Source: Bacteriovoracaceae bacterium (GTDB taxonomy: Bacteria; Bdellovibrionota; Bacteriovoracia; Bacteriovoracales; Bacteriovoracaceae). Taken from it: a stretch of 64,000 bases of DNA. A program made the translations under genes and the position numbers. The notes under the pieces were generated by a model, which saw nothing but the letters and a program-made list of their open reading frames with translations, was not told the DNA's origin and ran no database searches. The stretch covers positions 848,146 through 912,145 of the forward strand of contig OZ244226.1 of the NCBI GenBank assembly GCA_965217035.1, read 5' to 3'. The number at the start of each line of letters is the position of its first letter. The first letter of the stretch is position 1. Below are positions 39,178 through 64,000 of the stretch, one piece after another.

Positions 39178-39199
39178 AAATTACACAGGAGACACAAAT

Positions 39200-39748
39200 A
39201 TGAATTTCTTATTATCTATTTTATTAATGCTAAGCTCTTTGGTTTTAACTTACAGTGATAATGCAAAAGCCTTTGATTTAGAAAAAGAGAGAGTTTACTT
39301 CACAGGAAATTACGAGAGAACTTTTTCAGAATCTTTTAGAAAACGTCAAATGGCTTTTGAGAAAAAACTCAAGGTTGATTTAGAGTTGATAAAGCTTAAA
39401 ACAGGTCGAGCGAGATTAATCCTAAGATTCCATCCTTTTAGAGTTGGATTTATTCATAATCTTTCAATGGAATGCCCTGGAGCCAGCTTTGATCTCCTTG
39501 GAGAAGATGATGGCTTCGGAGGCTATAGACTCTATGAAGGAAGTCAAAATTACATAAATAATAAAGTTTGGGGTAGTTTTACTGGAACAAAAAGAAAGGC
39601 CTCTATTAATGTAAGTGATCTTGAATCAACAATAACTAACTGTATCAATAATGATTCTACTAGCGGTGGATGGAGTTGGGCACATTCGACTCAACAAAGA
39701 AACCTTCTCAACGAAGGGCAAACATTACTTACTCTAAAAAGAAGATAA
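39200..39748 (+). CDS. secreted protein, unknown function
   Basis: 182 aa. CAGGAG SD. Signal MNFLLSILLMLSSLVLTYSDNAKA. Confidence 0.55.
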   Translation: MNFLLSILLMLSSLVLTYSDNAKAFDLEKERVYFTGNYERTFSESFRKRQMAFEKKLKVDLELIKLKTGRARLILRFHPFRVGFIHNLSMECPGASFDLLGEDDGFGGYRLYEGSQNYINNKVWGSFTGTKRKASINVSDLESTITNCINNDSTSGGWSWAHSTQQRNLLNEGQTLLTLKRR

Positions 39749-39757
39749 TGAGTACTT

Positions 39758-46953: not shown

Positions 46954-47817
46954 TCAACTATAAGATGGAGTCACTTTTTCTGGTGTCAAGTCTACGGATG
47001 GCAAATTGAGATTAACTCGAGGTTTTTGAATATTTTCGCGCTGAAAGTATTCATAAGCTCGTGTTGTGATGTCAGTGGCATAAGCTTTTTCATAATTAAT
47101 ATCAAAGACATAAGCTTTAACATTAAAGACTAAAGCAAAAGTCCCTCCTATTATTTCTTCACTCACAACTATATTGACGGGTTTTTTAAGATAAGCATAA
47201 CGACTCGTGATAACAATCTCATAAAGTATTTTTTTTATATCGATGATATTTTCAGTTGGAGCAATATGAAATTTAACCTCAACCATCATATCCAGGGCTC
47301 CAGCATTACCTGAAGAAACAGCATTATTGATAAATTGAGAGTTTGGAATAGTAACAAGAGAGTCATCGAGGGTAATTAATCGAACGGCCCTTAAACCAAT
47401 ATGAGATATTTCGCCGTAGATATCATTAAACTTTACTCTATCTCCCACCTGGAAAGGGCGATCAAATAAAAGAACAACTCCGGCAATAAGCGATGATGAA
47501 ATATCTTTTAAAGCAAAACCAATTGCAAGAGCGGCAGACCCCCCAAGACCGAGAAGAACCTGTTCCGGTGGTCGAAGAACCGCATAAATAATAAAAAATG
47601 AACCAAAGATATACCAAGCAAAAGTGAAGACTGTTGTAATTTGAAGAATTGTAAGTCTTAAGTTTGGCCATTTCTTTTCAAGATTTTGAGAAACAGTTTT
47701 GAACCGTCGGGCTAAAAAGATTAAAACAGCAAACGCAATAACAAGCATGAAAATCTTTTCAACTTGAAAGAGATTAAGAATTTCTGAAACGTCCGATAAT
47801 TCTTTCTTAGCTGGCAT
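46954..47817 (-). CDS. small-conductance mechanosensitive channel (MscS family)
   Basis: 287 aa. Three N-terminal TM helices, then LLFDRPFQVGDRVKFNDIYGEISHIGLRAVRLITLDDSLVTIPNSQF, the MscS beta-domain signature. The start overlaps the upstream ATPase gene by 11 nt. Confidence 0.85.
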   Translation of the reverse strand: MPAKKELSDVSEILNLFQVEKIFMLVIAFAVLIFLARRFKTVSQNLEKKWPNLRLTILQITTVFTFAWYIFGSFFIIYAVLRPPEQVLLGLGGSAALAIGFALKDISSSLIAGVVLLFDRPFQVGDRVKFNDIYGEISHIGLRAVRLITLDDSLVTIPNSQFINNAVSSGNAGALDMMVEVKFHIAPTENIIDIKKILYEIVITSRYAYLKKPVNIVVSEEIIGGTFALVFNVKAYVFDINYEKAYATDITTRAYEYFQRENIQKPRVNLNLPSVDLTPEKVTPSYS

Positions 47818-50140
47818 AAATTAAGTTCTTCTTTTTTAAATAATTAATAAGAGAATGTTGAAATCTAACATTAATTGTATAAGCTCCATTTTCTCTTCGA
47901 ATTAATATGTTATGATCCAACCCAAGCTTTAGGGCGAATCTAATAACACTTTCAGGTAAACTCGTGACCTTCATTGCATCAATTGTTGATAAGTTTTCGT
48001 GTTTAACAATCGCAGAGTAGATAAAGAGAGTATCATCGGTCAGATTACTTAACATAGAAAGATCATCATCATGAGGGAGTCCAACACTAAAGAACTTTCC
48101 TCCTCTGTATTTTAATGAAGAGAGCCAGGTATAAAGAGAAATTTCAGGGTTACCAAGTGATTGCTCCCAAAGCAGTCGAAAAAACTGATCTTCTACCTGC
48201 TCGACACTATCCATTTCGAAAGCACCTTTCGTTGCACGAACAATATCATGATATGAAAGCTTATAATCTGAAAGCTCGTGCCGTTTCATAATCATCTTTC
48301 GAATATCTTGATCAGTAAAAGGAGCAAGCTCAACAACAGTTCTAAAATTTTGATTCTTTCCAAATGCTGATTTCAAATATGACCAAGAATATGCATTAAA
48401 GCTAAAAAGAAAGAAGATATTTTCAACTCTCGCATTAATCAATTGAAGGATTGTCTTAAAAGCTTCGAACCCTCCAACCTTAGATAAAAAGCTATTTTGA
48501 CTCTCATCTAACATGATTAAAGTCTGAGGCATTGTTTTATCCGCTTCAATTAATGGAAAGTAATCATCTTCCATTTGGACACCAGTAAGACTAGAAATGA
48601 ATTGGACTAACTCACCTTCACTGAGAAGACGACTTGGCATATTGGCACGAATTATCTGAACTCCCTCTTTTTTTATTTCAGATTCAAGCATTGTTAAGAA
48701 AGTTGTCTTTCCAGCTCCCTTTTCGCCAACAAGCACAAGTGAGTTCTCATCACTCCTGTCTTCAATCCATGATTGGATGCAACTCAGAACAGCTGAATAC
48801 TTTGAGTTCCGACTTTCTGTAAAGAGAGATTTATCATGCTCCACTCTTCTATAAAAAAGCTCTTGATAATCTTCAGGTAAATCTTGAAGCTCAGATTCTT
48901 CAAAGATTTCAGAATTTTCTAGCTTTCTTTTGAAAATCTCTGCCGTTATTGATTTAACAAATTCAAATCTTCCACTCCACTGCAAAAAGAGCATGAAAAC
49001 ATTAACGGCTAAAACTGCAATTAAAACTGGTAAACAAAGATAAAAATGTCTTTTCATGCTCAGATTCTTTGACAACCATTCTGAGACATGAGGAATTTTC
49101 ATGTCAGCAACTTTAGCGCTTAGCTCTTGCCTCCAATCTCTTCCAATAATAAAAAGAACAATAAGGATAACGATAAATGAAATGTTTTGAAATATATAAT
49201 ACGAAAGCCCTTTACTCACCACACTTTCGATCATGTAGATCAAGCTATAGGAAATTAAAAGAGTAAAACTCAAAAGAGAAGCATTTTTAGCTGCCTTCTC
49301 CTCTAAAGATCCTGATTTTTGCCCAGGTTTATAATTTTTAGCAATTCGCAAAAGTGAATCAGATAAAATTTTTCTAAAAATTCTATAGTAAATCCAATAA
49401 GCAATAAATGGATAAAAGATTGAAAGTTCCTCGAAATGTGTTTTTTCTAACAAACTTCGAGATAAAGAAATCGAATAAAGGGCCATGATCCAAGGAAAGT
49501 AATCAATCGCTAATCGAAGGAGCTCAGAATAAAGAGAATAATTTTTTGCTTTATAGCTCAAGCGAATAAATTTTGCTCTCCAGATTTTGAGCTTCTTGAT
49601 AATCCTTTTAGAGACTCCCCAAAAGAAAAAAGGAATCATAAAAACAAGGCAGAGAAGGACTCCGTCAAGAACAAGAGTTTTAATGCCATCGAAGCCAAGT
49701 TTTAAATTATTTTTAATATAAATGACTTTAAAATAAGCAATGGCATACCACTCAACCGGCACAAGTTGAATTTCTCTTCTTAAATCATTAAAGAAAGCAA
49801 GGTTGAAATCAAAAACCGTAGAATCCTGGTTTTGTTGAACTTCTATTAAGTATTTCGAACGGATTTTACTTGAGCGCAGTAAGAGATCGAGGTGGCGATC
49901 AAAGCCTTCTTGGAATTCCTCGTCTGTTTCTCCCTCTTCTCGAGCAAGCTGATCGGTAGTCGCATCAACAATATCTCTCCAAATATTAAGAGATTTTTCA
50001 TATTGTTCTCGCGGATCAACCGCGCTTCCATATTCAACTTCAAGTTGAGTCAAATCATTGTCGAAATTGTCATAATCCTGAGGCCCATAGGAATATGCGC
50101 TGAAGTTAAACCATGTAATAATAAGAATAAATACTTTCAC
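47807..50140 (-). CDS. polytopic membrane protein with C-terminal cytoplasmic P-loop NTPase (AAA-like) domain
   Basis: 777 aa. GTG start. Signal-like MKVFILIITWFNFSAYS, an acidic ~120-aa segment and at least 5 hydrophobic helices. Then Walker A LVLVGEKGAGKTTFL and Walker B TLIMLDESQN, with a helical C-terminal domain. Confidence 0.55.
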   Translation of the reverse strand: MKVFILIITWFNFSAYSYGPQDYDNFDNDLTQLEVEYGSAVDPREQYEKSLNIWRDIVDATTDQLAREEGETDEEFQEGFDRHLDLLLRSSKIRSKYLIEVQQNQDSTVFDFNLAFFNDLRREIQLVPVEWYAIAYFKVIYIKNNLKLGFDGIKTLVLDGVLLCLVFMIPFFFWGVSKRIIKKLKIWRAKFIRLSYKAKNYSLYSELLRLAIDYFPWIMALYSISLSRSLLEKTHFEELSIFYPFIAYWIYYRIFRKILSDSLLRIAKNYKPGQKSGSLEEKAAKNASLLSFTLLISYSLIYMIESVVSKGLSYYIFQNISFIVILIVLFIIGRDWRQELSAKVADMKIPHVSEWLSKNLSMKRHFYLCLPVLIAVLAVNVFMLFLQWSGRFEFVKSITAEIFKRKLENSEIFEESELQDLPEDYQELFYRRVEHDKSLFTESRNSKYSAVLSCIQSWIEDRSDENSLVLVGEKGAGKTTFLTMLESEIKKEGVQIIRANMPSRLLSEGELVQFISSLTGVQMEDDYFPLIEADKTMPQTLIMLDESQNSFLSKVGGFEAFKTILQLINARVENIFFLFSFNAYSWSYLKSAFGKNQNFRTVVELAPFTDQDIRKMIMKRHELSDYKLSYHDIVRATKGAFEMDSVEQVEDQFFRLLWEQSLGNPEISLYTWLSSLKYRGGKFFSVGLPHDDDLSMLSNLTDDTLFIYSAIVKHENLSTIDAMKVTSLPESVIRFALKLGLDHNILIRRENGAYTINVRFQHSLINYLKKKNLIYAS

Positions 50141-51661: not shown

Positions 51662-52642
51662 TTATGGAGACAGAACTTTTTCCTTAATAAAAGCCTTCAA
51701 GTCATCAAGCTGTTTATCACTGAGGCGCTCACGCGTATAATTAGGCATATAAATAGTATCACTTTCAAATAACCCTTTACGAGAAACTCCATAGGAATTC
51801 TTTAGGCGATAAAGAGCTTTATAAGTCCTACGAGAATCCCTAAAGCGAGGCATTTTTGCCGTAATACCGCTATCAGCTTTATGACAATGGAGACAGGAGT
51901 TTTCAAAAATGACCTTCCCACTCTCAGGGTCACCATTCATACCGTATCCCGCTTCAAAGTCTGACGGAGGTTTAACAAAGGTCGCTTCGGAGGTCTTTAG
52001 ATATTTAGAGTCTAATAATTTCAATTTTTCTTTATTATTAATCTTGGAAGCATTCAGAAACTCATAGTCCTCTAGGCTTAATTTCAGATCAGCCAATTTA
52101 TATTGAAGAGACCAAAGATAATTGAGCATCGCCTCAAGCTCCCAACTATCGAGAGCTCTTCCTTTTGAACATTCTTTAGAACAGAGTTGAACAGCATTTC
52201 GAAAATCTTTATGAGCAGGCCCAATCAATTCCTTGCCATACTTTTTAATGTAATCCCCGTTAAACCATGATGTTCTATTGACTGATCCATACATTGTCGT
52301 CCCTGGTAAAAAAGCGAGTCCATTCGTTTTTGCAAACTTCAATCGAGCTTCGGGATCATTGATGGATAAGTCAGGATCCTCCTGAACAACATTATGGCAG
52401 TGATTGCAACGAAATGCCGGAGCCTGAAGAATCGTCATTGTTCCATCAGGTCGCTTGGTTTGCCCTTTAAAAAAAATCTCCTCACCTTTTTTAATAAGTA
52501 TAGGATCTAATTTCTTGAGAGCATGGAGCGGTTTTTTCTCTCCTAAATCCTGACGGACTTCTTCTAAGGGCGTTTTAAAGTCATACTGAGAATAAGCATT
52601 AAAACCAACAAATAGAATGAAAAGCAAAACCCGCATGCTCAT
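51662..52642 (-). CDS. secreted di-haem c-type cytochrome
   Basis: Signal MSMRVLLFILFVGFNAYS. There are two CxxCH haem-binding motifs (FRCNHCH and SCLHCH). Confidence 0.65.
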   Translation of the reverse strand: MSMRVLLFILFVGFNAYSQYDFKTPLEEVRQDLGEKKPLHALKKLDPILIKKGEEIFFKGQTKRPDGTMTILQAPAFRCNHCHNVVQEDPDLSINDPEARLKFAKTNGLAFLPGTTMYGSVNRTSWFNGDYIKKYGKELIGPAHKDFRNAVQLCSKECSKGRALDSWELEAMLNYLWSLQYKLADLKLSLEDYEFLNASKINNKEKLKLLDSKYLKTSEATFVKPPSDFEAGYGMNGDPESGKVIFENSCLHCHKADSGITAKMPRFRDSRRTYKALYRLKNSYGVSRKGLFESDTIYMPNYTRERLSDKQLDDLKAFIKEKVLSP

Positions 52643-52671
52643 TATATAGCATATGAGATGCGGATTTTGAG

Positions 52672-53682
52672 TTATTTAAGAATTTTTAAGGATTCTATTC
52701 CCTTTAATAGGATTTGAGGATTCGCCTGAGTCGGAGATATGACATTTTTGACTCCAGTAGCTTCTATTTTAACCTTAGGATTCACCCAGAAATTTCTCCC
52801 ACCAACGGCCGTCTTTTGATTTTGCTTCCAAAGCCCTTCAAGATACTCTCTGATCTTCAAGAATGTTTCTGTACTTTCAAAGTTAACAAGCGTGTAATTT
52901 CTCTCAAATCCAAGCTTACCTTTCACTCTTAAAGCATAAATATCAAAACGGATCTGTGGACTTTTGGGAAACATAACAAGCTCACCTGTTAGTTTAATTT
53001 CATCTCCATGCCCCTCCACCATTGAAACTTTCTGAATCAGTGGATTTTTTTTATCAATATCAAGTTCAACATGAATCGGACGATCAGGATTGATTCGAAC
53101 AAAAACAGCGATATCTATGACATCATTTCGATAAACCTTTTCTAATAATTTATGATGCGTTTCAGGAACAAAAACAGGAACAACAGCATCTTTATATTCA
53201 ACAGCAAGAACCCCTTGAGCATAAGAAACACCATGAACCTTTCCTACGATTCGATCAACATCTTCTAGCTTAGAAAGATCTGCTCGATGCTTATACTTTG
53301 GCATCTTAGGATTCGTCTCAAAAGCTTTTAACATTTTCATTTCGTTAACAATCACATGAGGAAAACAACTTTCTGTTTCGAGAAACTCACCTTTCACAAG
53401 GATTTTATCATGGCGTTTTAATGTCATAAGTTGAGGAACAACTTTTTTATCCATAGTTAAAAGTGAGAAATCGATATATTTGAAGAAGTTTTTTGGAGAC
53501 CGGTAAGTTCCAACAAAAAGCTTAAACCGAGGAACAGCCCCATGAATAAAGATTTCAACCCCGTCAGCTTTTAATGATTTCTCAACTTCCTTAAGGGAAA
53601 TCTTATTGACCTCATCAGGACAATCAGCTTTCGCGAAATTGAAAACAACAATCAACGATACAAGAAAGAAAAACCAGCGCAT
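52672..53682 (-). CDS. secreted protein, unknown function
   Basis: 336 aa. Signal MRWFFFLVSLIVVFNFAKA. No motif recognised. Confidence 0.55.
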   Translation of the reverse strand: MRWFFFLVSLIVVFNFAKADCPDEVNKISLKEVEKSLKADGVEIFIHGAVPRFKLFVGTYRSPKNFFKYIDFSLLTMDKKVVPQLMTLKRHDKILVKGEFLETESCFPHVIVNEMKMLKAFETNPKMPKYKHRADLSKLEDVDRIVGKVHGVSYAQGVLAVEYKDAVVPVFVPETHHKLLEKVYRNDVIDIAVFVRINPDRPIHVELDIDKKNPLIQKVSMVEGHGDEIKLTGELVMFPKSPQIRFDIYALRVKGKLGFERNYTLVNFESTETFLKIREYLEGLWKQNQKTAVGGRNFWVNPKVKIEATGVKNVISPTQANPQILLKGIESLKILK

Positions 53683-53690
53683 ACTTTGTC

Positions 53691-54035
53691 CTACTGTTTA
53701 TCAACCCAACACTGAAATCGAAGCCCGTCATACTCAAGCACATTAATCGGGCCAACGTGTCCATTAAGAGTAAAGTCATACATTTTGGATTGAAACTTTC
53801 CAAAGCTCATTGTTAAAGATGCTTGAGGGTAATACTCATCACCTTTATCCCATAGAACGGAGAATTCGTAGTTTTTAAATTTGATAACATTTAAATCAAC
53901 GATATAACCTTCCGTAATAGTAACGGGAATAATCTTTTCGTCTCCCCCCTGAACAGGTTCATCAACTTTACACTTTAAACTTTTAGAGAAACCACTAGAA
54001 CTGATTAAAATAAGTAAGCAGATTAATTTCTTCAT
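53691..54035 (-). CDS. small secreted/lipoprotein-like protein, unknown function
   Basis: 114 aa. AGGAAG SD. Signal MKKLICLLILISSSGFS. Confidence 0.5.
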   Translation of the reverse strand: MKKLICLLILISSSGFSKSLKCKVDEPVQGGDEKIIPVTITEGYIVDLNVIKFKNYEFSVLWDKGDEYYPQASLTMSFGKFQSKMYDFTLNGHVGPINVLEYDGLRFQCWVDKQ

Positions 54036-54044
54036 AACTGCTTC

Positions 54045-54593
54045 CTAGAAATTTCTTTGTCTGTAAGTTTCAGCACAGAAAAATTGAAAGCTTCGGGCCC
54101 TATAATTCAAACCATCTCGAACGGCTGCACATGAATTGTAACCGTTGCTACAAACTCCTGCGAAGTTTCTCACAACAGAATGTCCAAGCTTATTCACTAA
54201 TTGATAATTACAAGTATCAACTGTCGAGTATCGGTGTAAGTATCCGTTAAAGGCAAAGTATGGATATTGGTTATAAGTGACCAAACCGTTGAAACCAATA
54301 TTAACATTAGGAACAACTCTTGTTGGAAGCATAAACCAACTTCCATAAAAATAGTTCGTAAGCCCTTGATTGACCCAAGCAGCGTAATAAGCATTGACGT
54401 TATAGTTAATAACTTGTTGGTAGTTCACAACTACCGGCTGATGCCAATAGTAGTAATAAGTTACCGGTCGGTAAGCGACTGGAGCATAATACCGAGGCAC
54501 GACTGGCCTGTAATAACGGCGTCCATAATATTGGGCCTGAGAATTCATACTCAAACTCGCAAAAAATACAGTGATAAAAATCAAAGCTTTCAT
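54045..54593 (-). CDS. secreted Tyr/Val/Asn-rich low-complexity protein with Cys-containing C-terminal part
   Basis: The ATG at 54593 has AGAGGAG upstream and gives the signal MKALIFITVFFASLSMNSQA. The mature N-terminus is QYYGRRYYRPVVPRYYAPVAYRPVTYYYYWHQPVVVNYQQVINYNVNAYYAAW. The track start at 54641 is an upstream extension. Confidence 0.5.
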   Translation of the reverse strand: MKALIFITVFFASLSMNSQAQYYGRRYYRPVVPRYYAPVAYRPVTYYYYWHQPVVVNYQQVINYNVNAYYAAWVNQGLTNYFYGSWFMLPTRVVPNVNIGFNGLVTYNQYPYFAFNGYLHRYSTVDTCNYQLVNKLGHSVVRNFAGVCSNGYNSCAAVRDGLNYRARSFQFFCAETYRQRNF

Positions 54594-54693
54594 AACTTCT
54601 CCTCTATAATTTTCGTTGATATTTACCCTATATAATGGCACTTTTACAAGTTTGGACTTTTACGGAGTGGTGCAAAAACGGTAGTATTTACAC

Positions 54694-55503
54694 ATGGTTT
54701 GGGATGTTGATCCAGCGATATTCAAATTAGGAGGCTTTGAGCTGAGGTACTATCCTCTTTGCTTCATTTTTGGCTTTTTGCTTGGGCAAAAATACGCGAC
54801 ACCTCGCTTTCTCAAAGAAGGTTTTGAAAAAAAACATGTCGAGAGTGTTGTTACCCATCTCATTATCGGAACGGTCATTGGTGCTAGACTAGGGCATTGT
54901 CTATTCTATGAACCAGAGTATTACCTCTCCAGGCCCTGGGAAATCCTAATGGTCTGGAAAGGTGGCCTTGCTTCTCATGGTGGGTTCACAGGTGTCATGG
55001 TTTCTCTTTATTTCTACTTGAAAAAATGGAAGAAGATGACCTTCTTTTGGTTGGTCGAAACATTAACTCCGGCCATTATGTTCGTTGCTGGACTCATCCG
55101 GATCGGAAACCTTTTTAATTCCGAGATCGTTGGAAAAGTCACAGATGTACCTTGGGCCTTCGTTTTCACTAAGGTTGATCCTAATCTCAGGCATCCCACT
55201 CAAATCTATGAATCTATCGGTTATTTCTCAATTTCGGCTATAATGTATTATTTTTGTAATAAATACGTTGGTACAAAAAAGTGGCCACCAGGAAGGGCCT
55301 TAGGTCTTGTTTTCATCATCTCTTTCACCTTTAGATTCTTCATTGAGTTTTTTAAGATCGATCAAGTTGCTTTTGAACAAGGAATGTCGATCAATATGGG
55401 TCAATGGTTAAGTGTTCCTTTTGTTTTGGCGGGAATTTACCTCATGACTGGCCATCAAAATAAGCTCAAAATCTTCGACCCACTTACAAAACCGCTTGGT
55501 TAA
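54694..55503 (+). CDS. lgt: prolipoprotein diacylglyceryl transferase
   Basis: 269 aa. GGLASHGGFTGV, IRIGNLFNSEIVGK and RHPTQIYESI are the conserved Lgt blocks. Confidence 0.9.
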   Translation: MVWDVDPAIFKLGGFELRYYPLCFIFGFLLGQKYATPRFLKEGFEKKHVESVVTHLIIGTVIGARLGHCLFYEPEYYLSRPWEILMVWKGGLASHGGFTGVMVSLYFYLKKWKKMTFFWLVETLTPAIMFVAGLIRIGNLFNSEIVGKVTDVPWAFVFTKVDPNLRHPTQIYESIGYFSISAIMYYFCNKYVGTKKWPPGRALGLVFIISFTFRFFIEFFKIDQVAFEQGMSINMGQWLSVPFVLAGIYLMTGHQNKLKIFDPLTKPLG

Positions 55504-55621: not shown

Positions 55622-56599
55622 ATGGCCAAAATCTCTGTTTACATTAACGACCGTGCCTCTGGTACAAGTAAGCTCGACTGGGAGTATGAACTTCATAAGT
55701 TTCTCTTCCGACATGATGTGAGCTATTACTCACCTTTCGATCTTGAAAGTTTAAAGGCTCAACTTACTACGGACCTCTATAATGGAACAGAATACATCTT
55801 CTCAATTGGTGGAGATGGAACGGCTAACCTCATTACTCAATTCCTTGCCTTAAGTGATATCAAGTTAATGGTTATCCCTACCGGAACAGCAAACGACTTT
55901 GCAAGCGAACTTGGTACTAACGAGGACATAAAAAAAATCATTCAAATTTTTAGGCATCAAACCTCGAAGAAAATTGATCTCATCAAAATTAACGAGTCTT
56001 ATATGTTCAGTAATGGTGGTATCGGTCTTGCTGCCAATGTTGCTCTCAAAGTTAACAAATATCGAAAAAGAGTTTCTCTTTTCAAACAAGTTATGAAGAA
56101 GATGGGTGCTAATACCTATTCGATGATTTTAGGAAAAGAACTTTTTCTCAAACCTATTAATATCTATAAGCTCAGAATTCACTCTCCTGACTTTCCACTT
56201 TTCGATGATGTTGTCGAAACTCCTATGCTTTTAATTAATAATCAATCGAAGGTTGGAGGTAAGTTTAATATCGCTCCTAATACTACGAACGACGATGGAA
56301 AGTTTAATGTTTCTATCTTGCTCCATAAAAATAAAAGAGATCTCTTTCAATTTATTTTTAAAACTTTGATGGATCAACCTGATACGGCGGATCCCAATTT
56401 TATAACATTTGAAACTAATCAAATTTCAATTACAAATGAATCAGAAGAAATTTTACCTTTTTTTGGAGATGGTGAAGTCCTAGAAAAAGCACAAAGTTTT
56501 GATATTCGACTTCTTAAACAAGCCATTAACGTTTGTGCTTATCAAGACCACCTTATGTATTCAAACAGATATTCCCTTGATGAGGTGACCTTGTCATGA
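55622..56599 (+). CDS. diacylglycerol-kinase catalytic-domain lipid kinase (YegS/LCB5 family)
   Basis: 325 aa. IFSIGGDGTANLI (GGDGT motif), VIPTGTANDFA and a C-terminal beta-sandwich region are present. Confidence 0.8.
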   Translation: MAKISVYINDRASGTSKLDWEYELHKFLFRHDVSYYSPFDLESLKAQLTTDLYNGTEYIFSIGGDGTANLITQFLALSDIKLMVIPTGTANDFASELGTNEDIKKIIQIFRHQTSKKIDLIKINESYMFSNGGIGLAANVALKVNKYRKRVSLFKQVMKKMGANTYSMILGKELFLKPINIYKLRIHSPDFPLFDDVVETPMLLINNQSKVGGKFNIAPNTTNDDGKFNVSILLHKNKRDLFQFIFKTLMDQPDTADPNFITFETNQISITNESEEILPFFGDGEVLEKAQSFDIRLLKQAINVCAYQDHLMYSNRYSLDEVTLS

Positions 56600-57648
56600 A
56601 ACTTTTGATTACAGGTGGAACTGGATTTATCGGAAAGACATTCCTTCTTAAGTCTTATAATGATTTTGAAAAAATCTACTTACTTGTAAGACCTCATTCT
56701 TTAAAAAAAGCTTTCACTTACTTTAAAGATATTCCTAATATTGAATTTGTTGTCGGTAATATTCTTGATAATGATGTCTGTGAAAGCATCAAAGACTTAG
56801 AGAGAATTTGTGAAGAAGTTGATTCAATCTTTCACTTAGCCGCTATTTACGACTTAGATATGAGTCTTGTCGACGCCTATACTCATAATGTTATTGGCGT
56901 TCAAAATGTTCTTAATCTTGCTCGAAAAATCAAAAACCTAAAATTCTTTCATCATGTTTCAACTTATGCCGTTAATGGAAATCCAAAAAATAGAGTTTAT
57001 GAAAATGATCTCAACGAAAGAGCATCTTTCTCTGATCATTATTCGCGAAGTAAAATGCAAGGAGAACACCTTGTAAGAACAATGAATATCGGGAAGTCTC
57101 AAAAAAGAATTTACCGCCCAGGTATTGTTGTAGGCTCTTATGAGACGGGCCTTATTCAAAAAATAGATGGTCCTTATTACTTCTATAACTTAGTTTTAAA
57201 ATTAAAAGAGTTTTTCCCAGTCATAGAGAAGCTTGGCTTCTTTCCTTTTCCATATGATGAAAGTACGAGTTTTCCTATTATTCCAGTTGATACATTGACC
57301 GATTGGTTTGCAAACTCGATTGCTCATCCTAAAAATGATGAAGAAATTAGAACTTATCATTTCATTTCTGATAGAAATATCGACTTAAAAAACTTCCTAG
57401 AAACATCTTTGAAGGAGCTAGGTCTTAATATTCCGGTCCTTCAGTTAAATCGTTCGCGTTTTTATAAATTTATTCTTCCTCGATTAGGAATTCCTTCAGG
57501 GATTGTAGGTTATCTCTATTCAGGAGCTCAATATGATATTACTCAGCGAAAGAAAGACTTTCCTGAACTCGTTGAGGTTGAGTACCAAGACTATGCGTCT
57601 ACTCTCGTGAAAGGATTTGAAAAGTATATTCAGGAGCAAATTCAATGA
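56596..57648 (+). CDS. thioester-reductase-type SDR (NAD_binding_4 / fatty acyl-CoA reductase-like)
   Basis: 350 aa. LITGGTGFIGK, IFHLAAIYDLDMS...NVIGVQNVLNLA...FFHHVSTYAV, and the catalytic YSRSK (YxxxK) are present. ATGA overlaps on both sides. Confidence 0.75.
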   Translation: MKLLITGGTGFIGKTFLLKSYNDFEKIYLLVRPHSLKKAFTYFKDIPNIEFVVGNILDNDVCESIKDLERICEEVDSIFHLAAIYDLDMSLVDAYTHNVIGVQNVLNLARKIKNLKFFHHVSTYAVNGNPKNRVYENDLNERASFSDHYSRSKMQGEHLVRTMNIGKSQKRIYRPGIVVGSYETGLIQKIDGPYYFYNLVLKLKEFFPVIEKLGFFPFPYDESTSFPIIPVDTLTDWFANSIAHPKNDEEIRTYHFISDRNIDLKNFLETSLKELGLNIPVLQLNRSRFYKFILPRLGIPSGIVGYLYSGAQYDITQRKKDFPELVEVEYQDYASTLVKGFEKYIQEQIQ

Positions 57649-59720
57649 AAGAAATTATTAACATTTCTCTAGGTTCAGCTTCTGAAAACTTTGACGAGAC
57701 AATTTCTGTACTTGGAACAACCTTTCGGATTAAAAGATTAGGAGTCGACTTTAACATTAATTTAGCTAAAAAACTTATCGAGCAATATCGTAATTCTGTT
57801 GATCTTTTTGCACTTTCAGGTTTCCCTCCGATCATCAATCTTAAGAGTAAGACCTATATTCATTGTCAATTGAGACAGATTATTAAGGCTACCGATGGCG
57901 TCCCTATTATTGATGGACAAGCCTTAAGAGATGTTTATCAACCATGGTTCCTTGACCGTCTTTTACAAGCATCGCCTGATTTCTTTGATGGAAAAAGAGT
58001 TGGATTCTTTACTGGTTGTATTCAAATGAATATTCTCAAAGAACTTGAAAAGCATAATTGCGAACTTCGATTTGCTGATCCTTACTTCTTCTATAGAGTT
58101 CCAAAGACACTTAAGACCTCTGCTGATTTAGATCTTTTTCTAAAATCAAATATTCAAATTCTAACTCGCTATCGCTTAAGAAAACTACAATTGCGAGACT
58201 TTACGAATCCTCTGGCAAAGAAAATGCCTTCTTTTCGAAAATTTTTAAACTCAGATATTTTTATCGCAAATAGCTCTCAACTTGATTATGTAAAGCTCCC
58301 AAGACTCGATGGAAAAACTTTTATTCTTGAACATCTCACAAAGAAAAACGAGGAAAAGTTAAGAGCCGCAGGCGTTGAAAGAATTCTAACGATAACGAAG
58401 GGGAATCTTGATCTTCCTGTTTTAAATCTTACTCTCCTACAAGCAATCTTTCAGCTTCTCAAAGACGATCTTTCACCTCTTACGGCCAGTGAAATCATTG
58501 AATTTACCGATAAGTTAAACTTGGCACCTAAAATTAATAAAGCGGAACAGAGAAATATAGAAGAAGATAATAAAACCCATAAGTTCTCTTTTATCGTCCA
58601 TCCGTTGAGCATTAATCACATCTTTCTTCATCCCGCTTTAAAGCCACTCGGAAGAAATAAAGGTATAAAGAAAGCAACAGAGAAACTAATTACATTAGCT
58701 CCTGGAACTTATTATGGAAAAGTTCTTGGGGTTAAAAGTGAAGCAACAGGGAAAGAGGTCGTAGGAGAGATCTATACGATTTTAGATACCCCTAAAATGA
58801 TGATGAAGGCTAAAAAGGAATGCATTTACAGAAAACTTGTTAATATTACCCATCAAGCTAAAAATAGAAACTCTAAAATCATTGGATTAGGCGCTTATAC
58901 AAAAATTGTAGGAGACGCGGGAGTCACTGTCGCAAAACGAAGCCCCATTCCAGTGACAACAGGAAACTCTTTGTCTGCAGCCTCTACTCTTTGGGCAGCT
59001 TCTTATGGAATTCAGAAGATGAATTTTGTTAACAAAGATGATGACATCTATCAAGGTACCGCCATGGTCGTCGGAGCGACAGGAAGCATTGGAAAAGTTT
59101 GTTCTAAACTTCTTTCGAAGTTTTGGGAAAATATTATTATTGTTGCTCCAAGGCCTTTTAAGCTTGTTGATCTAGCTAAAGAGATTAAAAAAATTTCTCC
59201 GAGTTGTAATATTACTTATTCAACAAGTCCCGATGATCACCTTCAAACAGCAGATCTTGTTATTACGACAACATCTGCCCAAGGAAGAAAAATCCTCGAT
59301 ATCGAAGAAGCAAAACCTGGAGCAGTCATATGTGATGTTTCAAGACCATTTGACATTAGTCTAGAAGACAGTTTAAAGAGACCTGACGTTCTTGTTATTG
59401 CGAGTGGGGAAGTTGAACTTCCAGGCAATAATGTCAAATTAACTTGCGATATTGGTCTGCCCGGAACGACGGTTTATGCATGTCTTGCGGAAACTGCTCT
59501 TCTTGCATTAGAAGGTCGCTTCGAAAATTTCAGTCTTTCAAGAGATATTAATTATCGAAAAGTGATAGAAATTGACTCGCTTGCTAGAAAGCATGGTGTG
59601 AAGCTTTCTGCTATCATGGGGCATGACTCTGAAATCACAGATGATGAGATTGCTCTTTGCAGAGAACACGCCCTAAGAAAAAGACTAGAGGAAGAAGATA
59701 ACGATGAATTGTGTCTCTAG
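57645..59720 (+). CDS. fusion protein: uncharacterised N-terminal alpha/beta domain plus C-terminal acyl-ACP reductase (cyanobacterial AAR)-like domain
   Basis: 691 aa. From residue ~325, the blocks FSFIVHPLS, IGLGAYTKIV, VTTGNSLSAAS, AMVVGATGSIGKVCSKLL, VYACLAETALLALEGRFENFSLSR and RKHGV parallel, in the same order, the blocks I recall from cyanobacterial AAR (FGLIGHLTS, ALGGFTSII, FTTGNTHTA, VVGATGDIGSAV, FACFAEAMLLEFEG..NFSWGR). This includes the Cys in the ACxAE block. The N-terminal ~320 aa (INISLGSASENFD...RLGVDFNINLAKKLIEQY...DLFALSG) resemble a family often auto-annotated as quinate 5-dehydrogenase. Confidence 0.6.
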   Translation: MKEIINISLGSASENFDETISVLGTTFRIKRLGVDFNINLAKKLIEQYRNSVDLFALSGFPPIINLKSKTYIHCQLRQIIKATDGVPIIDGQALRDVYQPWFLDRLLQASPDFFDGKRVGFFTGCIQMNILKELEKHNCELRFADPYFFYRVPKTLKTSADLDLFLKSNIQILTRYRLRKLQLRDFTNPLAKKMPSFRKFLNSDIFIANSSQLDYVKLPRLDGKTFILEHLTKKNEEKLRAAGVERILTITKGNLDLPVLNLTLLQAIFQLLKDDLSPLTASEIIEFTDKLNLAPKINKAEQRNIEEDNKTHKFSFIVHPLSINHIFLHPALKPLGRNKGIKKATEKLITLAPGTYYGKVLGVKSEATGKEVVGEIYTILDTPKMMMKAKKECIYRKLVNITHQAKNRNSKIIGLGAYTKIVGDAGVTVAKRSPIPVTTGNSLSAASTLWAASYGIQKMNFVNKDDDIYQGTAMVVGATGSIGKVCSKLLSKFWENIIIVAPRPFKLVDLAKEIKKISPSCNITYSTSPDDHLQTADLVITTTSAQGRKILDIEEAKPGAVICDVSRPFDISLEDSLKRPDVLVIASGEVELPGNNVKLTCDIGLPGTTVYACLAETALLALEGRFENFSLSRDINYRKVIEIDSLARKHGVKLSAIMGHDSEITDDEIALCREHALRKRLEEEDNDELCL

Positions 59721-61122
59721 TTTCTATAGCTCAAAGTCTAATAGTTCAGACCGTCCTGCTATTGTTTTTTTTGATGGAATTAACTCTCTTTCAAAGACTA
59801 AAAGAGCAACAAGCTTTAAAGAGTTTCATGAAAAAACTTTAAAAGCTCAGCAATATTTACTTAAAAATGGTTTCACAAAAGATGACACGATCCTATTAAT
59901 GGAAATGCCGAGTCCAAACTTCTTCGCCTTTATCATTGCTTCCTTATCTCTTGGAATAAAAATTCTTATTATCGAGCCTTGGTTATCATTAGACAAAATA
60001 ACAAAAATCATTGAAAGAACAAAACCGAAAGGATTTATGACTGCCTTATTTGGCCGAGTTTGGGGAATTCGCTCCAAAGCGGTAAGAAATATTCCAAACT
60101 GGTTCAACTCATCTGTTCTTAATAGTTATTCGGCAAGCAAGGAACCGACAATAGAGCAAATGGATGATCAAGCGAATGCAATTATCACATTTACAACAGG
60201 AACCACTGGAACTCCAAAAGCGGTTCACAGAAAACATGGATATCTTCTTACTCAGATGCAAGTTCTCAAAAAACATTTCCACTATAATCGTTTCACCGGC
60301 CCAGATTTAACAATTTTTACAAATATTGTTCTTTTAAATCTAGTTAGTGGTAAAACAAGTCTCTTTGTTCCACCAAAATGGCCAAAAAAATCTCTTAGAG
60401 ATCTTGATAAATTACCAAAAAATCTTCGACCTCAAACAACTGCGGTTGGACCGGCTTTTCTCGAAAAACTACTTAATCATTCAGAATTAAATGGATTGGA
60501 ATCACTCCATGTTGGAGGAGCTCTGTGCGACAATTCAGTCTATGAAAGAGCAATAAAGAAATGGGAAGGTAAAGAGCTTATCCATGTTTATGGCTCAAGT
60601 GAAGCTGAACCTGTAGCTCTTTCAAATCTTGAGGAAGCTGTACAGAAAAGTAAGGATAATAATTATTTTCAAACACTTTATCTCGGAAAAACAGTTGAAG
60701 AAATAACAATGAATATTGAAGAAAAGAGTGCCTGGATTAGTGGTATTCATGTCTCTCCTCTTTACGAAGGAGACTCTGAAGAGGCCCGTAAAAATAAGAA
60801 AATCGATGAGGATGGTAGACTTTGGCATAATATGGGAGACAGAATTTCTGAATCTGTTGATGGCCTTTGGTATAAAGGACGAGACTTTCAAGAACTCAAT
60901 GATTTTGAGCTCGAACAAAAAATTTATAATCTCACAGATCATTCTCGTTCCTTTATTCATACGGTTAATGATAAAAAGTACTTAGTTGGTGAAGATCTTC
61001 CAGTTAAAACAATTAAACAAAACCACCCAGAGATTGATCAAGTTTTCTCAACAAAGATTATTCGCGACAAACGCCATAGAGCTCGAATTGATCGTCCTAG
61101 CTCTTTAAAAGGATTAATATGA
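59704..61122 (+). CDS. AMP-dependent synthetase/ligase (adenylate-forming; fatty acyl-AMP/ACP ligase-like)
   Basis: 472 aa. The AMP-binding core is ITFTTGTTGTPKAV, followed by IHVYGSSEAEP and a GD...DG..W..GR block (NMGDRISESVDGLWYKGRD). 17-nt overlap with the upstream gene. Confidence 0.8.
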   Translation: MNCVSSFYSSKSNSSDRPAIVFFDGINSLSKTKRATSFKEFHEKTLKAQQYLLKNGFTKDDTILLMEMPSPNFFAFIIASLSLGIKILIIEPWLSLDKITKIIERTKPKGFMTALFGRVWGIRSKAVRNIPNWFNSSVLNSYSASKEPTIEQMDDQANAIITFTTGTTGTPKAVHRKHGYLLTQMQVLKKHFHYNRFTGPDLTIFTNIVLLNLVSGKTSLFVPPKWPKKSLRDLDKLPKNLRPQTTAVGPAFLEKLLNHSELNGLESLHVGGALCDNSVYERAIKKWEGKELIHVYGSSEAEPVALSNLEEAVQKSKDNNYFQTLYLGKTVEEITMNIEEKSAWISGIHVSPLYEGDSEEARKNKKIDEDGRLWHNMGDRISESVDGLWYKGRDFQELNDFELEQKIYNLTDHSRSFIHTVNDKKYLVGEDLPVKTIKQNHPEIDQVFSTKIIRDKRHRARIDRPSSLKGLI

Positions 61123-61961
61123 AAAGCCCTTATTTACAGTTTATTCTTCAAAGAGTTCCTATCATTCCACAACTTCTTCTAAGCTATGGTTTTAGTTATT
61201 CAGGGCTTTATCTTACTGGAGTTGAAACTAATCTCGTTCATTTTGTTTCTTTTATTGTTTTTATGTTTCTCACTCAATTACGTTTTATGGACGAAATAAA
61301 AGACTTTGAAAAAGATAAAATCGCAAACCCAGATAGACCACTCCCTAAGGGACTCATCTCTGCCCAATCTGTCCTAAAAGGCATTACCATTCTCGGTACA
61401 ATTTTAATTGTTTTAAATATTTGTACCTTTGCTCTTTCCCAAACAGGCGGAGTCTGGTTAATGATAACTCTTATTTGGCTCCTCTTAATGTATAAAGAAT
61501 TTTTCTTAGGAGAGAAATTAGCTGAATACCCTCTAGTCTATGCAATTACTCATCAAATTATTATTGTGCCTCTTGTGCTTTTTATTGCGACCACATTAAA
61601 TCCAGATTCAGAAATTACAAATACCGTAAACTACTCTTTTATGGTCTTTGGTGGTTTTTTTAGTTACGAAATAGGAAGAAAACTTAACCCCAATGCTCAC
61701 GAAGTTTTAAAAACCTATTTAAAGGTTTATGGCCTTCCCATAACAATTCTCTTAACTGTCATTCTAATGGCAATCAGCTGTTATTTTGCAAATAGTTTAA
61801 ATCTTCTAAAACCGATTGGAATATCAAGTACTCTAGCGCTTGCCAGTTATTTTATACTTTTTTCAAAACCTAATATTTATAAACTTACAGAATTACTCAT
61901 AACACTTAACTTACTTTTGATACTTTGGATTATTCCTCTTAAAAATTGGATAAATTTATGA
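61119..61961 (+). CDS. UbiA-superfamily intramembrane prenyl/alkyl transferase
   Basis: 280 aa with ~8 hydrophobic helices. The first Asp-rich motif plus following loop is RFMDEIKDFEKDKIANPDRPLPKGLIS (compare NDxxDxxxD...RPLxxG). ATGA overlaps on both sides. Confidence 0.75.
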   Translation: MKSPYLQFILQRVPIIPQLLLSYGFSYSGLYLTGVETNLVHFVSFIVFMFLTQLRFMDEIKDFEKDKIANPDRPLPKGLISAQSVLKGITILGTILIVLNICTFALSQTGGVWLMITLIWLLLMYKEFFLGEKLAEYPLVYAITHQIIIVPLVLFIATTLNPDSEITNTVNYSFMVFGGFFSYEIGRKLNPNAHEVLKTYLKVYGLPITILLTVILMAISCYFANSLNLLKPIGISSTLALASYFILFSKPNIYKLTELLITLNLLLILWIIPLKNWINL

Positions 61962-64000
61962 AAATGTTGTTAAAACAAAGCGATTCATTAGAAAATCACC
62001 TTCAAGAAAGTGGTGGAAAAGGGTATAACCTCGCAAAACTTTTTCAACAAAACATTACTGTTCCTGAATTCTTTGTCGTTACGAATACTCTTTTTCAAGA
62101 GTACAAAAAATTTATCAAATTTGATGAATCTAAATATGAAAATCTTTCTTTTTCTGAAAAAACAAAAGAAATCGAAAATCTCTTCTCTCAAAATGAAATT
62201 CCTAATAATTTGTATCAACCAATTGAAAAGATTCTCGCAACCAATGATTTTTCAAATAAACTTTTTGCAGTAAGATCAAGTGGCCTTGACGAAGACTCGA
62301 GCGATCATTCATTTGCAGGAATGTTCTCATCATTTCTTTTTCAAGAGACTCATGAACAAGTAAACCTCGCCATTAGAAAATGCTGGGCCAGTGCTTATAC
62401 AGAAAGGGCCCTAGAGTATAGAAAGAAGAATGGATTAAACCTTTCAAATATAGCCATGGGTGTTGTTATCCAGAGAATGATCAATTCTGAAAAATCGGGA
62501 GTCCTCTTCACAAGAAATCCTGTCGATCCACTCGATAGAGACAATCTAATTATTGATAGTGTCTATGGACAAGGGGAAGGTCTTGTCAGTGGTTTGTTAG
62601 ATGCTGATCATTATAAGTTTTCTCGAAAAGAAAAAAAACTAGAATCAAATATAATAAAGAAAACCTCAAAACTTGTGAGAGAAGGATCTAAACCAGGCTT
62701 AGTTGAAGAAGATGTTCCTGAAAATCTCCAAGAAGTTTCTAGTCTAGAAGAAAGTGAAGTTGCTAAAATTGCAGAGAAGGGAATTCAACTCGAAACAATC
62801 AATCAAGCTCCTCAGGATATTGAATGGGCCATCGAAAATGGAACTGTTTACTTCTTGCAAATGAGACCAATCACAAACCTTCCACCTCCAGAGTTCTACG
62901 ATAAAGAAATCAATGGAGATGAACCAACTCTTTGGGATAATTCTAATATTGTCGAAAGCTTCAGCGGTGTAACCTTACCACTCACCTACTCCGGGACATC
63001 AAAGAGTTATGCCATTGTTTACCGCCAAACCTTTAGAGTGATAGGAATTCCGGAGAAATATATAGAACAATATGACGAGCAATTCGAGAACATGCTTGGT
63101 TATATAAGAGGTCATGTTTATTATAATCTATTGAATTGGTACAAAGTTCTTTTCCTACTTCCTAGTAGTTCAAACAATAAAGAATTTATGGAAACAATGA
63201 TGGGAGTAAAAGAAGATCTCCATGAAGATCATCAAAAACTTTTCAACTTCACAAATGATATCCCTAAATATTCTAAATTAGAAAAGATTTCGATTTCACT
63301 CAATCTTGCTTTTAAATTTTTTTCTTTCGAATCAAGAAGAAAAAAATTTGTTAAAAAGTTCACTAAAATCTATGATGAGTATAACGCAACAGACTTCAAA
63401 AAAAGATCTTTAAAATCCCTAGAACAATCTTTCAAACGCTGGAACCAAGAAATCATTTACAATTGGGAAACACCCATACTCAATGACATCTTTGTCATGA
63501 TATTTTTTGGAGTTCTGAAAAAACTTACTTCGAAGTGGATTCAAACAGAACAAGACTTCACCACATTACAAAATGATCTCCTTTGTGGAGAAGGAGGTCT
63601 TGAAAGTACGATGCCAACGAAAGTTCTCATGGAAATCGCTAGCGAGGTCGACCAAAATCAAGAGCAAAGAGACTTTATTTTGAATAGTGAACTAGAATCT
63701 CTTCATGAAAAGCTCTTTGTAAGCTCACATGAAGACCTTAAGGCCAGAATAAGTGATTATCTCTTCCGTTACGGGTTTCGTTGTCACAATGAACAGAAAC
63801 TTGAAGAACAAGATCTCACAGAGAATCCGACATTTGTTTACTCTAACCTACAAAACTATCTGAGGATGAAAAACTATAGTGTCAAAGAGATGGAAGAAAG
63901 AGAACAGAAGATTAGAAAAGAAGCCGAAAAACTTGTAAGCTCGCACATTAGTGGAGCTAAAAAAACTGTTTTCTTTTGGGTTTTAAAGAATGCAAGAAGA
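61958..64000 (+). CDS. PEP-utilising enzyme family protein (PPDK_N ATP-grasp; PEP synthase / rifampicin-phosphotransferase-like), 3' end beyond window
   Basis: Not in the ORF track because it is open at the right edge. Manual translation from the ATG at 61958 gives MKMLLKQSDSLENHLQESGGKGYNLAKLFQQNITVPEFFVV...FAVRSSGLDEDSSDHSFAGMFSSFLF...CWASAYTERALEYRKKNGL...MGVVIQRMINSEKSGVLFTRNP...IDSVYGQGEGLVSG, the PPDK_N signature blocks. The frame is open for 681 codons to 64000. The two small track ORFs at 61988-62273 lie inside it. Confidence 0.8.
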   Translation, partial: MKMLLKQSDSLENHLQESGGKGYNLAKLFQQNITVPEFFVVTNTLFQEYKKFIKFDESKYENLSFSEKTKEIENLFSQNEIPNNLYQPIEKILATNDFSNKLFAVRSSGLDEDSSDHSFAGMFSSFLFQETHEQVNLAIRKCWASAYTERALEYRKKNGLNLSNIAMGVVIQRMINSEKSGVLFTRNPVDPLDRDNLIIDSVYGQGEGLVSGLLDADHYKFSRKEKKLESNIIKKTSKLVREGSKPGLVEEDVPENLQEVSSLEESEVAKIAEKGIQLETINQAPQDIEWAIENGTVYFLQMRPITNLPPPEFYDKEINGDEPTLWDNSNIVESFSGVTLPLTYSGTSKSYAIVYRQTFRVIGIPEKYIEQYDEQFENMLGYIRGHVYYNLLNWYKVLFLLPSSSNNKEFMETMMGVKEDLHEDHQKLFNFTNDIPKYSKLEKISISLNLAFKFFSFESRRKKFVKKFTKIYDEYNATDFKKRSLKSLEQSFKRWNQEIIYNWETPILNDIFVMIFFGVLKKLTSKWIQTEQDFTTLQNDLLCGEGGLESTMPTKVLMEIASEVDQNQEQRDFILNSELESLHEKLFVSSHEDLKARISDYLFRYGFRCHNEQKLEEQDLTENPTFVYSNLQNYLRMKNYSVKEMEEREQKIRKEAEKLVSSHISGAKKTVFFWVLKNARR

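Follow-up and report, generated by a model that had tools for sequence, protein, structure and literature searches.

What does a chain of six overlapping genes make when homology assigns a substrate to none of its products? The question is raised by positions 55,622 to 64,000 of a 64,000-nucleotide stretch of contig OZ244226.1 (assembly GCA_965217035.1) from a member of the Bacteriovoracales (Bdellovibrionota). This whole stretch is referred to here as the window. Its six plus-strand genes, g1 to g6, encode in order a lipid kinase, a thioester reductase (TR), a fusion protein that ends in a domain like acyl-acyl carrier protein reductase (AAR), an adenylating enzyme, a divergent membrane protein of the UbiA superfamily, and a phosphotransferase of the rifampin phosphotransferase (RPH) type. 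We conclude that g1 to g6 are the front of an at least nine-gene, translationally coupled operon that is characteristic of Bacteriovoracales. Its most likely role is to convert fatty acyl precursors into a specialised membrane lipid destined for export to the cell envelope. We put the general picture, a pathway to an envelope lipid that passes through a fatty aldehyde or alcohol, slightly above even, while any single detailed chemistry for the joining step of g5 is improbable at best.

The initial annotation had described these genes as one operon joined by short overlaps, and the open reading frames (ORFs) and their junctions read just as it had them: ATGA overlaps occur at four junctions (56596, 57645, 61119 and 61958) and a 17-nt overlap joins g3 to g4 (59704-59720; all features are collected in Table 1). 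Within the g1-g6 chain, promoter-like and terminator-like sites showed no excess over the shuffled expectation (7 terminator-like sites vs 6.4 expected). The six family assignments proposed earlier also held up in profile searches and could be refined, the C-terminal domain of g3 being of the AAR/PigE type, g5 a divergent UbiA protein nearest to the archaeal DGGGP synthase (DGGGPS), and g6 an RPH/PigC-type enzyme. Five of the six proteins pass the Pfam gathering threshold, the exception being g5 (UbiA). Because every NCBIfam match of the six proteins lies far under its equivalog cut-off, homology cannot transfer any substrate to them.

The product of g1 is a lipid kinase of the DAGK fold (YegS/BmrU type), with Pfam matches to DAGK_cat (55.2 bits, cut-off 23.6) and YegS_C (32.7 bits, cut-off 27) and a GGDGT nucleotide-loop motif in its translation. 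It scores between 70 and 93 bits with the NCBIfam lipid-kinase models (YegS, DgkB, MamU and others), the best being 92.7 against a cut-off of 313, so that NCBIfam yielded no equivalog identity with a kinase of known substrate. The g2 protein is a short-chain dehydrogenase/reductase of the thioester-reductase type (Pfam NAD_binding_4, 135 bits). In NCBIfam it matches PRK07201 (N-terminal half) at 1e-49 and Thioester-redct at 8e-24, and its nearest solved structure is the terminal reductase of MxaA (myxalamid), 4u7w. It carries TGGTGFIGK, a TGxxGxxG nucleotide loop, and YSRSK, which contains the YxxxK pair; judged by these residues, a TR-type active site is present.

The g3 protein has two domains. 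Its C-terminal domain matches the NCBIfam model of the PigE N-terminal region at 3.9e-45 and, more weakly, the AAR model TIGR04058 at 9e-19, and it matches PigE in the PDB (4ppm) at 6.7e-36. Both equivalog scores fall well short, at 68 vs 449.7 for AAR and 154 vs 850 for PigE. The AlphaFold model of the domain has a mean predicted local distance difference test (pLDDT) score of 86.5, and Foldseek superimposes it on AAR 6jzq with a template-modelling (TM) score of ~0.81-0.82. In the hidden Markov model alignment, the AAR catalytic residue Cys294, which is altered in the C294S structure 6jzz, corresponds to the invariant C613 of g3 (VYACLAETA), and GATGSIGK of g3 aligns to the AAR nucleotide loop. 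The domain thus has the AAR/PigE-type fold with its catalytic Cys and nucleotide loop intact. Experimental support exists for the N-domain of PigE as a thioester-to-aldehyde reductase (PMC8341465). Like g3, PigE and TamH fuse this reductase to a second domain, which is consistent with channelling of a reactive aldehyde. Unlike these systems, g3 has neither an aldehyde-deformylating oxygenase (ADO) partner nor an aminotransferase, and the partner to which it is fused is an unannotated N-domain of ~300 aa.

This N-domain yielded no match in Pfam and no sequence match in the PDB. It is nevertheless modelled with confidence by AlphaFold (pLDDT 89.8, predicted TM score 0.87), and Foldseek returned only weak similarities, to glutamate dehydrogenase and other amino-acid dehydrogenases, AAR and TAD (TM 0.4-0.48). 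The model contains a Rossmann-like beta-alpha-beta unit (strand 118-121, helix 124-135, strand 140-143) with a GxxxG-type loop. The residues H73, G91, D145, D204 and K224 are invariant, D145 lying just past the second strand of this unit. From the model, the domain is possibly a variant nucleotide-binding catalytic domain, such as a variant Rossmann dehydrogenase. An exhaustive HMMER search of 1.84 billion representative proteins recovered only 301 relatives, a small family; some form the N-terminus of ~690-aa AAR-like fusions, and others are ~300 aa long and seemingly stand alone, although some of these may be fragments. The possibility that the N-domain is a degenerate copy of the C-domain was also considered and is kept only as a lead, since the hhalign probability was 0.7%, which is not significant, and the Foldseek TM scores were 0.4-0.48.

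The fourth gene encodes an adenylating enzyme of the ANL superfamily (Pfam AMP-binding, 105.9 bits) with the A3 motif TGTTGTPKA. The nearest NCBIfam model is the uncharacterised PRK09274 (2e-43, under its cut-off), and OleC-type beta-lactone synthetases match more weakly. Among 21 full-length homologues the C-terminal end RDxRH[RK][AS]RIDR is strictly kept, and an Arg of this motif appears to replace the canonical A10 Lys of ANL enzymes. Divergent g4 paralogues of ~620 aa end in ...DARHQSKVEY instead. In 11 loci, g4 and g5 are a single ORF of 705-828 aa, and in Oligoflexus a 752-aa protein matches g4 and then g5 by tblastn, making it a probable further fusion. Since 11 loci encode them as one chain, the g4 and g5 proteins can be taken to act in physical contact.

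The g5 protein itself is an integral membrane protein with ~6-8 hydrophobic segments. It reaches 32.7 bits with the Pfam UbiA model, under the gathering score of 34.2, which homologues pass at 35.3-36.2 bits. A family profile built from 21 members aligns almost end to end with archaeal DGGGP synthase (6m31) at 3.4e-6, and this match makes membership in the UbiA superfamily credible. DGGGP synthase is the best solved match of the family and has the first Asp-rich motif and RPLPxG in common with it: MDEIKDFEKD...RPLPKG in g5 stands against NDIFDIEID...RPLPSG in DGGGPS, with ND replaced by DE. In canonical UbiA enzymes, a second Asp-rich motif (DxxxD or DxxDxxxD) holds the diphosphate donor and the second Mg2+. 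In g5 this motif is gone: KDFEDMEGD of DGGGPS has no counterpart, and all 21 members have an invariant [FY]E..RK (YE..RK in g5) in its place. The family differs from DGGGP synthase further in its fusion to an ANL enzyme and in having no isoprenoid genes nearby.

The window end cuts g6 at residue 681 of 907, and its full length is known from an identical 907-aa protein in our protein collection, P0172. The g6 protein scores 248 bits with Pfam PPDK_N, and P0172 consists of PPDK_N (ATP-grasp), Rph_4th (substrate domain) and PEP-utilizers (swivelling His) domains, the last with the motif GSLLSHSAVVARE. In enzymes of this class, the phosphoryl group of ATP is passed via His to an oxygen of a hydrophobic substrate, and by its residues g6 keeps the phospho-His relay intact. 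The best NCBIfam match is PRK06241.2-2 (580 bits), followed by RedH/PigC (1e-76) and RPH (7e-59), all under their cut-offs (RPH 200/999, PigC 255/1300, RedH 258/1350, and PEP synthase TIGR01418 191/739.75). The nearest solved structures are Listeria rifampin phosphotransferase entries, with 5fbs at 1.3e-41. Of the earlier description as a phosphoenolpyruvate (PEP)-synthase/rifampicin-phosphotransferase-like enzyme, the second half stands and the first does not: a PEP synthase or PPDK was rejected for g6, which has no PEP/pyruvate-binding TIM-barrel domain and only sub-threshold scores. The three-domain layout and His motif are those of RPH and PigC/HapC. For HapC, a PigC homologue, a phospho-His relay to a substrate oxygen has been proposed and modelled on the RPH structure (PMC13534948). 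The g6 protein differs from both in falling under their cut-offs and in sharing its operon with genes for UbiA-fold and ANL proteins.

Co-conservation of the six genes had been set as a check on their common function. To follow it, we compared 88 related loci by tblastn and by clustering all ORFs in ±10 kb around each homologue; a gene scored absent at a locus may lie elsewhere in the same genome. Of the 80 genome loci that a g3 profile recovered, nearly all carry Bacteriovoracaceae or Halobacteriovoraceae names, and the full-length g3 homologues are annotated to the same two families. One locus lies on a 2.03-Mb contig (JBLHVN010000001.1) of a metagenome-assembled genome labelled Sulfitobacter sp.; its layout and identities are near-identical to those of two Halobacteriovorax loci (L031 and L027), and the label is probably wrong.

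The check bore out the grouping. The first three genes, which we call module A, are contiguous and collinear in every sufficiently long locus. Among the 40 loci with full 10-kb flanks, g1 and g2 are present in all, g1 directly preceding g2 each time; g6 is found in 37, g4 in 35 and g5 in 33. The internal order of g4-g5-g6 (module B) is constant, with the RPH/PigC-type g6 always following. Relative to g1-g3, module B may lie downstream, upstream and divergent, or several kb off; it is within 10 kb of module A in ~83-93% of complete loci. That the two modules stay close despite this rearrangement is strong evidence of functional linkage.

Further genes recur with the two modules. Directly 3' of g3, most relatives have a DUF3419 (BtaA-family) gene of ~365 aa, which is present in 36 of the same 40 loci, and a tandem-GNAT protein of ~340 aa (17 of 40) usually comes after module B. 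Other recurrent neighbours encode a formyltransferase-fold protein (32 loci), a P450 (14-19 loci) nearest to terpene oxygenases (pentalenene oxygenase, 2.5e-70), an unannotated protein of ~225 aa (14-18 loci), and components for export: MacB/FtsX (14 loci), ABC (14 loci) and LolA_like (10 loci). The accessory proteins (DUF3419, GNAT-like, and proteins of 231 and 464 aa) found no informative NCBIfam model, and the GNAT-like and DUF3419 proteins showed only generic GNAT and methyltransferase (S-adenosylmethionine, SAM) similarity to PDB profiles. Genes for a MacB/FtsX permease, an ABC ATPase, a LolA_like protein and unannotated proteins of 354-406 aa recur beside DUF3419, in Oligoflexus and, with related genes, in Bdellovibrio and Bacteriovoracales; this suggests a dedicated trans-envelope lipid export route, alternative to MMPL.

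The closest relative, L087, has the six genes in the same order with identical 4-nt overlaps and the same 17-nt g3/g4 overlap, at 54-62% identity for g1, g3, g4 and g6 and 44-48% for g2 and g5. Beyond g6 it continues with a GNAT-like gene, an opposite-strand 220-aa gene, DUF3419 and MMPL, and further on with an Exo_endo_phos (sphingomyelinase-fold) protein, a neutral ceramidase and an aldehyde dehydrogenase. L003 is similar and includes a P450 and MMPL; its operon continues into GNAT-like, DUF3419 and MMPL genes. None of DUF3419, GNAT, the formyltransferase-like gene or P450 occurs within the 64-kb window, and, judging from L087 and L003, it is very probable that the operon runs on beyond 64000.

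More distant genomes have module B in other company. In B. bacteriovorus (L085, in CP169237) the order is AMP-ligase, GNAT, P450, MFS, UbiA-like and RPH-like; 9 kb away stands an operon with DUF3419, LolA_like and a g3-like gene (49% identity), and neither g1 nor g2 was found in the 22.7 kb examined. In Oligoflexus (L089) the probable g4-g5 fusion is followed by RPH-like and GNAT genes, with a divergent operon of DUF3419, ABC, FtsX and LolA_like and no g1-g3 within 10 kb. An 8.1-Mb assembly (L086) has MMPL, DUF3419, a 464-aa membrane protein, AMP-ligase, UbiA-like, RPH-like and GNAT, with no g1-g3 at the locus. From this gene content, the operon in the window is two modules joined: a broad core (ANL, UbiA-like, RPH-like, GNAT, DUF3419 and exporter) and a reductase/kinase module, the latter typical of Bacteriovoracales and partly of Bdellovibrio.

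We also looked for partners that known pathways would require. In agreement with the initial annotation, scans of the window ORFs found no acyl carrier protein (ACP), ADO, ketosynthase or serine palmitoyltransferase (Spt). In particular, neither a conserved small ORF nor a PP-binding motif that could be an ACP, or the carrier-protein partner of g2, was seen in 85 loci or in the window operon; no Spt was present in the scanned part of the window (31.9-64 kb) or in the gene clusters conserved across the 88 loci; no ketosynthase occurred in the same part of the window; and no ADO-like gene was found in the window operon or among its conserved neighbours. An alkane pathway was rejected for want of an ADO. 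The earlier statement that the locus matches no characterised pathway still stands, as neither a paper nor a curated model of the cluster turned up in full-text literature searches, which included a Bdellovibrionota comparative-genomics paper.

How, then, might the lipid be made? We propose that the g3 C-domain would reduce an acyl-ACP or acyl-CoA thioester, taken from bulk metabolism, to a fatty aldehyde. As in PigE, TamH and AAR-ADO, the aldehyde would be passed to a partner without release; here the g3 N-domain and/or g2 would turn it into a lipid alcohol. This alcohol could be phosphorylated by g1, could receive a 3-amino-3-carboxypropyl group in ether linkage from the BtaA-like enzyme, or both. 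Activation would be the task of g6, which may phosphorylate a hydroxyl or enolisable oxygen of a lipid intermediate; g5 would then couple a second component, in the membrane, to either the activated intermediate or a prenyl donor, and g4 would activate a carboxylate for an acylation step. The GNAT protein might N-acylate an amino head group, with an amino-acid-type head group added by the BtaA-like enzyme, and MMPL or MacB/LolA-like systems would export the product to the outer envelope.

Two known kinds of system come near to this proposal. BtaA is a SAM:diacylglycerol 3-amino-3-carboxypropyl transferase, and its DUF3419 family is linked to module B across Bdellovibrionota. However, the reductases and the UbiA-like and RPH-like partners are foreign to the synthesis of diacylglyceryltrimethylhomoserine, and DUF3419 is not in the window; no BtaB methyltransferase was noticed in the loci, in which no search was aimed at BtaB. 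The myxobacterial ElbD and mycobacterial FadD/Pap/MmpL loci follow the same logic, in which an adenylating enzyme is combined with reductase or acyltransferase steps and with an RND/MMPL exporter to make a specialised envelope lipid, but they use another enzyme set, and the cluster has no ElbD-type multidomain protein, polyketide synthase or carrier protein.

Several points weigh against the proposed pathway. Its steps are predicted from sequences and models, and the NCBIfam matches behind them are all far under the equivalog cut-offs. Because the second Asp-rich motif is absent, the donor of g5 may not be a diphosphate, and g5 itself may be no ordinary transferase. Since the loci hold no carrier protein, the substrates of g2 and g3 must be bulk acyl-ACP or acyl-CoA. 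The occurrence of module B with GNAT and DUF3419 but without g1-g3 in L086 and L089 means that the reductase/kinase module is not obligatory for the product of module B. Finally, the DUF3419, GNAT and exporter genes lie outside the window, and their presence downstream is extrapolated from relatives.

The same enzymes can be ordered differently. The initial annotation had arranged them in a line in which g4 activates a fatty acid, g3 and g2 reduce it to the aldehyde and alcohol, g1 and then g6 phosphorylate this to the alkyl phosphate and diphosphate, and g5 makes an ether lipid from the diphosphate. Such a route is possible: all the enzyme families it needs are in one operon, and the closest solved relative of g5, DGGGP synthase, forms ethers. 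PPDK/PEPS-type enzymes transfer phosphoryl groups through His, and we infer that this chemistry could in principle act on a phosphate monoester. Nevertheless, the linear route is unsupported and we consider it quite unlikely. The modules are separable, since g1-g3 are missing beside module B in L086 and L089 and the 22.7 kb examined of L085 have neither g1 nor g2, and g5 has lost the diphosphate-binding motif. UbiA enzymes act on ionisable allylic or oxocarbenium donors, and we know of no precedent for a saturated alkyl diphosphate in this role. The route gives no part to the g4-g5 fusion, DUF3419 or the tandem GNAT. Any model has to accommodate these conserved partners, which the initial annotation could not see, along with the MMPL or MacB/LolA-like exporters. 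As pure speculation, an allylic donor derived from a 2-enoyl thioester would make better chemical sense than a saturated alkyl diphosphate. The conservative reading of g5, supported by the nearly full-length DGGGPS profile match and by the retained first Asp-rich motif and RPLPxG, is that it puts a polyprenyl or geranylgeranyl group on a phosphorylated lipid hydroxyl, giving a mixed prenyl/acyl, archaeal-like ether lipid. The kinases could provide the phosphorylated acceptor, and the recurrent P450 is nearest to terpene oxygenases, yet that similarity is generic. With the motif for the second Mg2+ on a prenyl diphosphate absent, and with neither a prenyl diphosphate synthase nor a glycerol 1-phosphate or glycerol 3-phosphate dehydrogenase among the conserved neighbours, an isoprenoid donor seems unlikely.

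Two further alternatives were weighed. Bacteriovorax stolpii is known for sphingophosphonolipids, and the families of the cluster overlap with those of the Caulobacter ceramide locus, so that sphingolipid tailoring or turnover, also raised in the initial annotation, has circumstantial support from the lineage. Here g1 would phosphorylate ceramide or sphingoid bases, g2 would act as a keto-reductase, the GNAT as a ceramide-synthase-like N-acyltransferase and g4 as an acyl-ACP-synthetase-like activator, all of them working on the sphingo(phosphono)lipids of the lineage. Ceramidase-family genes do flank the cluster in L087 and L088, where Exo_endo_phos accompanies them, and in L003, but these are only three loci, two of them with the same arrangement. 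An Spt-like aminotransferase or an ACP was found neither in the scanned window nor in the loci, g2 belongs to the TR-type NAD_binding_4 enzymes, none of the members is named by a curated NCBIfam model, and we know of no sphingolipid step that needs a UbiA, AAR-like or RPH-like enzyme; a sphingolipid role is therefore rather unlikely. Very unlikely is a small molecule of the prodiginine/tambjamine type, in which g4, like TamA, would activate a fatty acid, g3, like PigE/TamH, would yield an aldehyde, and g6, like PigC/TamQ, would O-phosphorylate a carbonyl for condensation with an amine. Both g3, whose C-domain matches the N-domain of PigE (3.9e-45) better than AAR (9e-19), and g6, which matches the RedH/PigC models at 1e-76, lean this way, and both the reductase activity of PigE and a phosphorylation-then-condensation mechanism proposed for HapC have been described (PMC8341465, PMC13534948). 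However, g6 scores far higher with PRK06241.2-2 (580 bits) than with PigC (255 bits), and the membrane transferase, MMPL and LolA-like partners point to a lipid. The prodiginine pathway itself was rejected, as there is no aminotransferase domain and there are no pyrrole-forming genes.

An envelope lipid built through a fatty aldehyde or alcohol thus remains the reading we prefer. Each protein belongs to a known superfamily, and the kind of cluster, a specialised lipid biosynthesis and export operon, is known as well. What is new lies in architecture and motif: the ANL-UbiA-like fusion, a clade of UbiA-fold proteins with one Asp-rich motif, and the unannotated N-domain of g3. There is a modest chance that the chemistry of g4 and g5 is truly new. 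The ANL-UbiA-like pair would then be a membrane transferase using a fatty-acid-derived donor in place of a prenyl diphosphate, with an acyl-adenylate as one candidate and an alkyl or alkenyl phosphate from the RPH-like enzyme as another. Together with the AAR-like reductase, its new N-domain and the BtaA-like enzyme, it would give the predatory Bdellovibrionota an ether- or homoserine-type envelope lipid that has not been described before. We offer this fuller proposal tentatively, as unlikely.

Upstream of the operon, 118 nt before g1 and on the same strand, lies lgt (prolipoprotein diacylglyceryl transferase). It is not kept beside the cluster in the other genomes among the related loci compared, and it may be co-transcribed with the operon in the genome of the window. 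The remaining content between 31.9 and 54.6 kb (CysRS, MutS2, enolase, a PilT-like ATPase, QueF and others) is housekeeping or unannotated. Further upstream are an MscS-type channel gene and a gene for a 777-aa AAA_22 ATPase; as both families also precede g1-g3 in L001 and L002, synteny of this flank may extend to part of the order. Unannotated ORFs at 38533-41604 and 51662-54641 and a DUF4423 gene have no obvious relation to the operon.

Table 1. Coordinates of the six-gene operon, of other features of the window, and of features of related loci discussed in the text
Feature	Location	Strand	Description
g1	55622-56599	+	325 aa ORF
g2	56596-57648	+	350 aa ORF
g3	57645-59720	+	691 aa ORF
g3 N-terminal domain	57645-58574	+	residues 1 to ~310, unannotated alpha/beta
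g3 C-terminal domain	58575-59720	+	residues ~311-685, AAR/PigE-N-type NAD(P)H thioester reductase
g4	59704-61122	+	472 aa ORF
g5	61119-61961	+	280 aa ORF
g6	61958 to window end	+	frame open through 64000
lgt	54694-55503	+	prolipoprotein diacylglyceryl transferase
MscS-type and AAA_22 genes	46954-50140		channel gene and 777-aa ATPase gene
ORFs with no Pfam match	52672-53682, 53691-54035, 54045-54641, 40597-41604, 38533-39748		114-336 aa
DUF4423 gene	39758-40600		DUF4423 protein
g4-g5 fusions	L003:12106-14385, L077:2075-4333, L080:6627-8852, L034, L035, L037, L038, L043, L044, L026, L014		one ORF
Ceramidase-family genes beside the cluster	L087:14554-18359 and L088 (same arrangement)		Ceramidase_alk, with an Exo_endo_phos gene
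Ceramidase-family gene beside the cluster	L003:5245-5976		PF05875
MacB/FtsX, ABC and LolA_like sets beside DUF3419	L089:13768-18838, L085:18532-22730, L019:13320-15198, L038:12686-14544		candidate export genes

Several automatic names can be corrected from this analysis, namely 'phosphoenolpyruvate synthase', '4-hydroxybenzoate polyprenyltransferase' and 'predicted amino acid dehydrogenase'. UbiA proteins are by default named prenyltransferases and RPH/PEPS-like proteins PEP synthase, and the reaction scope of both families may be extended by the enzymes described here. Bdellovibrio-like predators are studied as living antibiotics. The envelope of such a predator must survive entry into the prey and the predator's own lytic enzymes, and its lipid biosynthesis is only partly mapped; a conserved, lineage-typical cluster provides a concrete handle on an envelope lipid of these predators.

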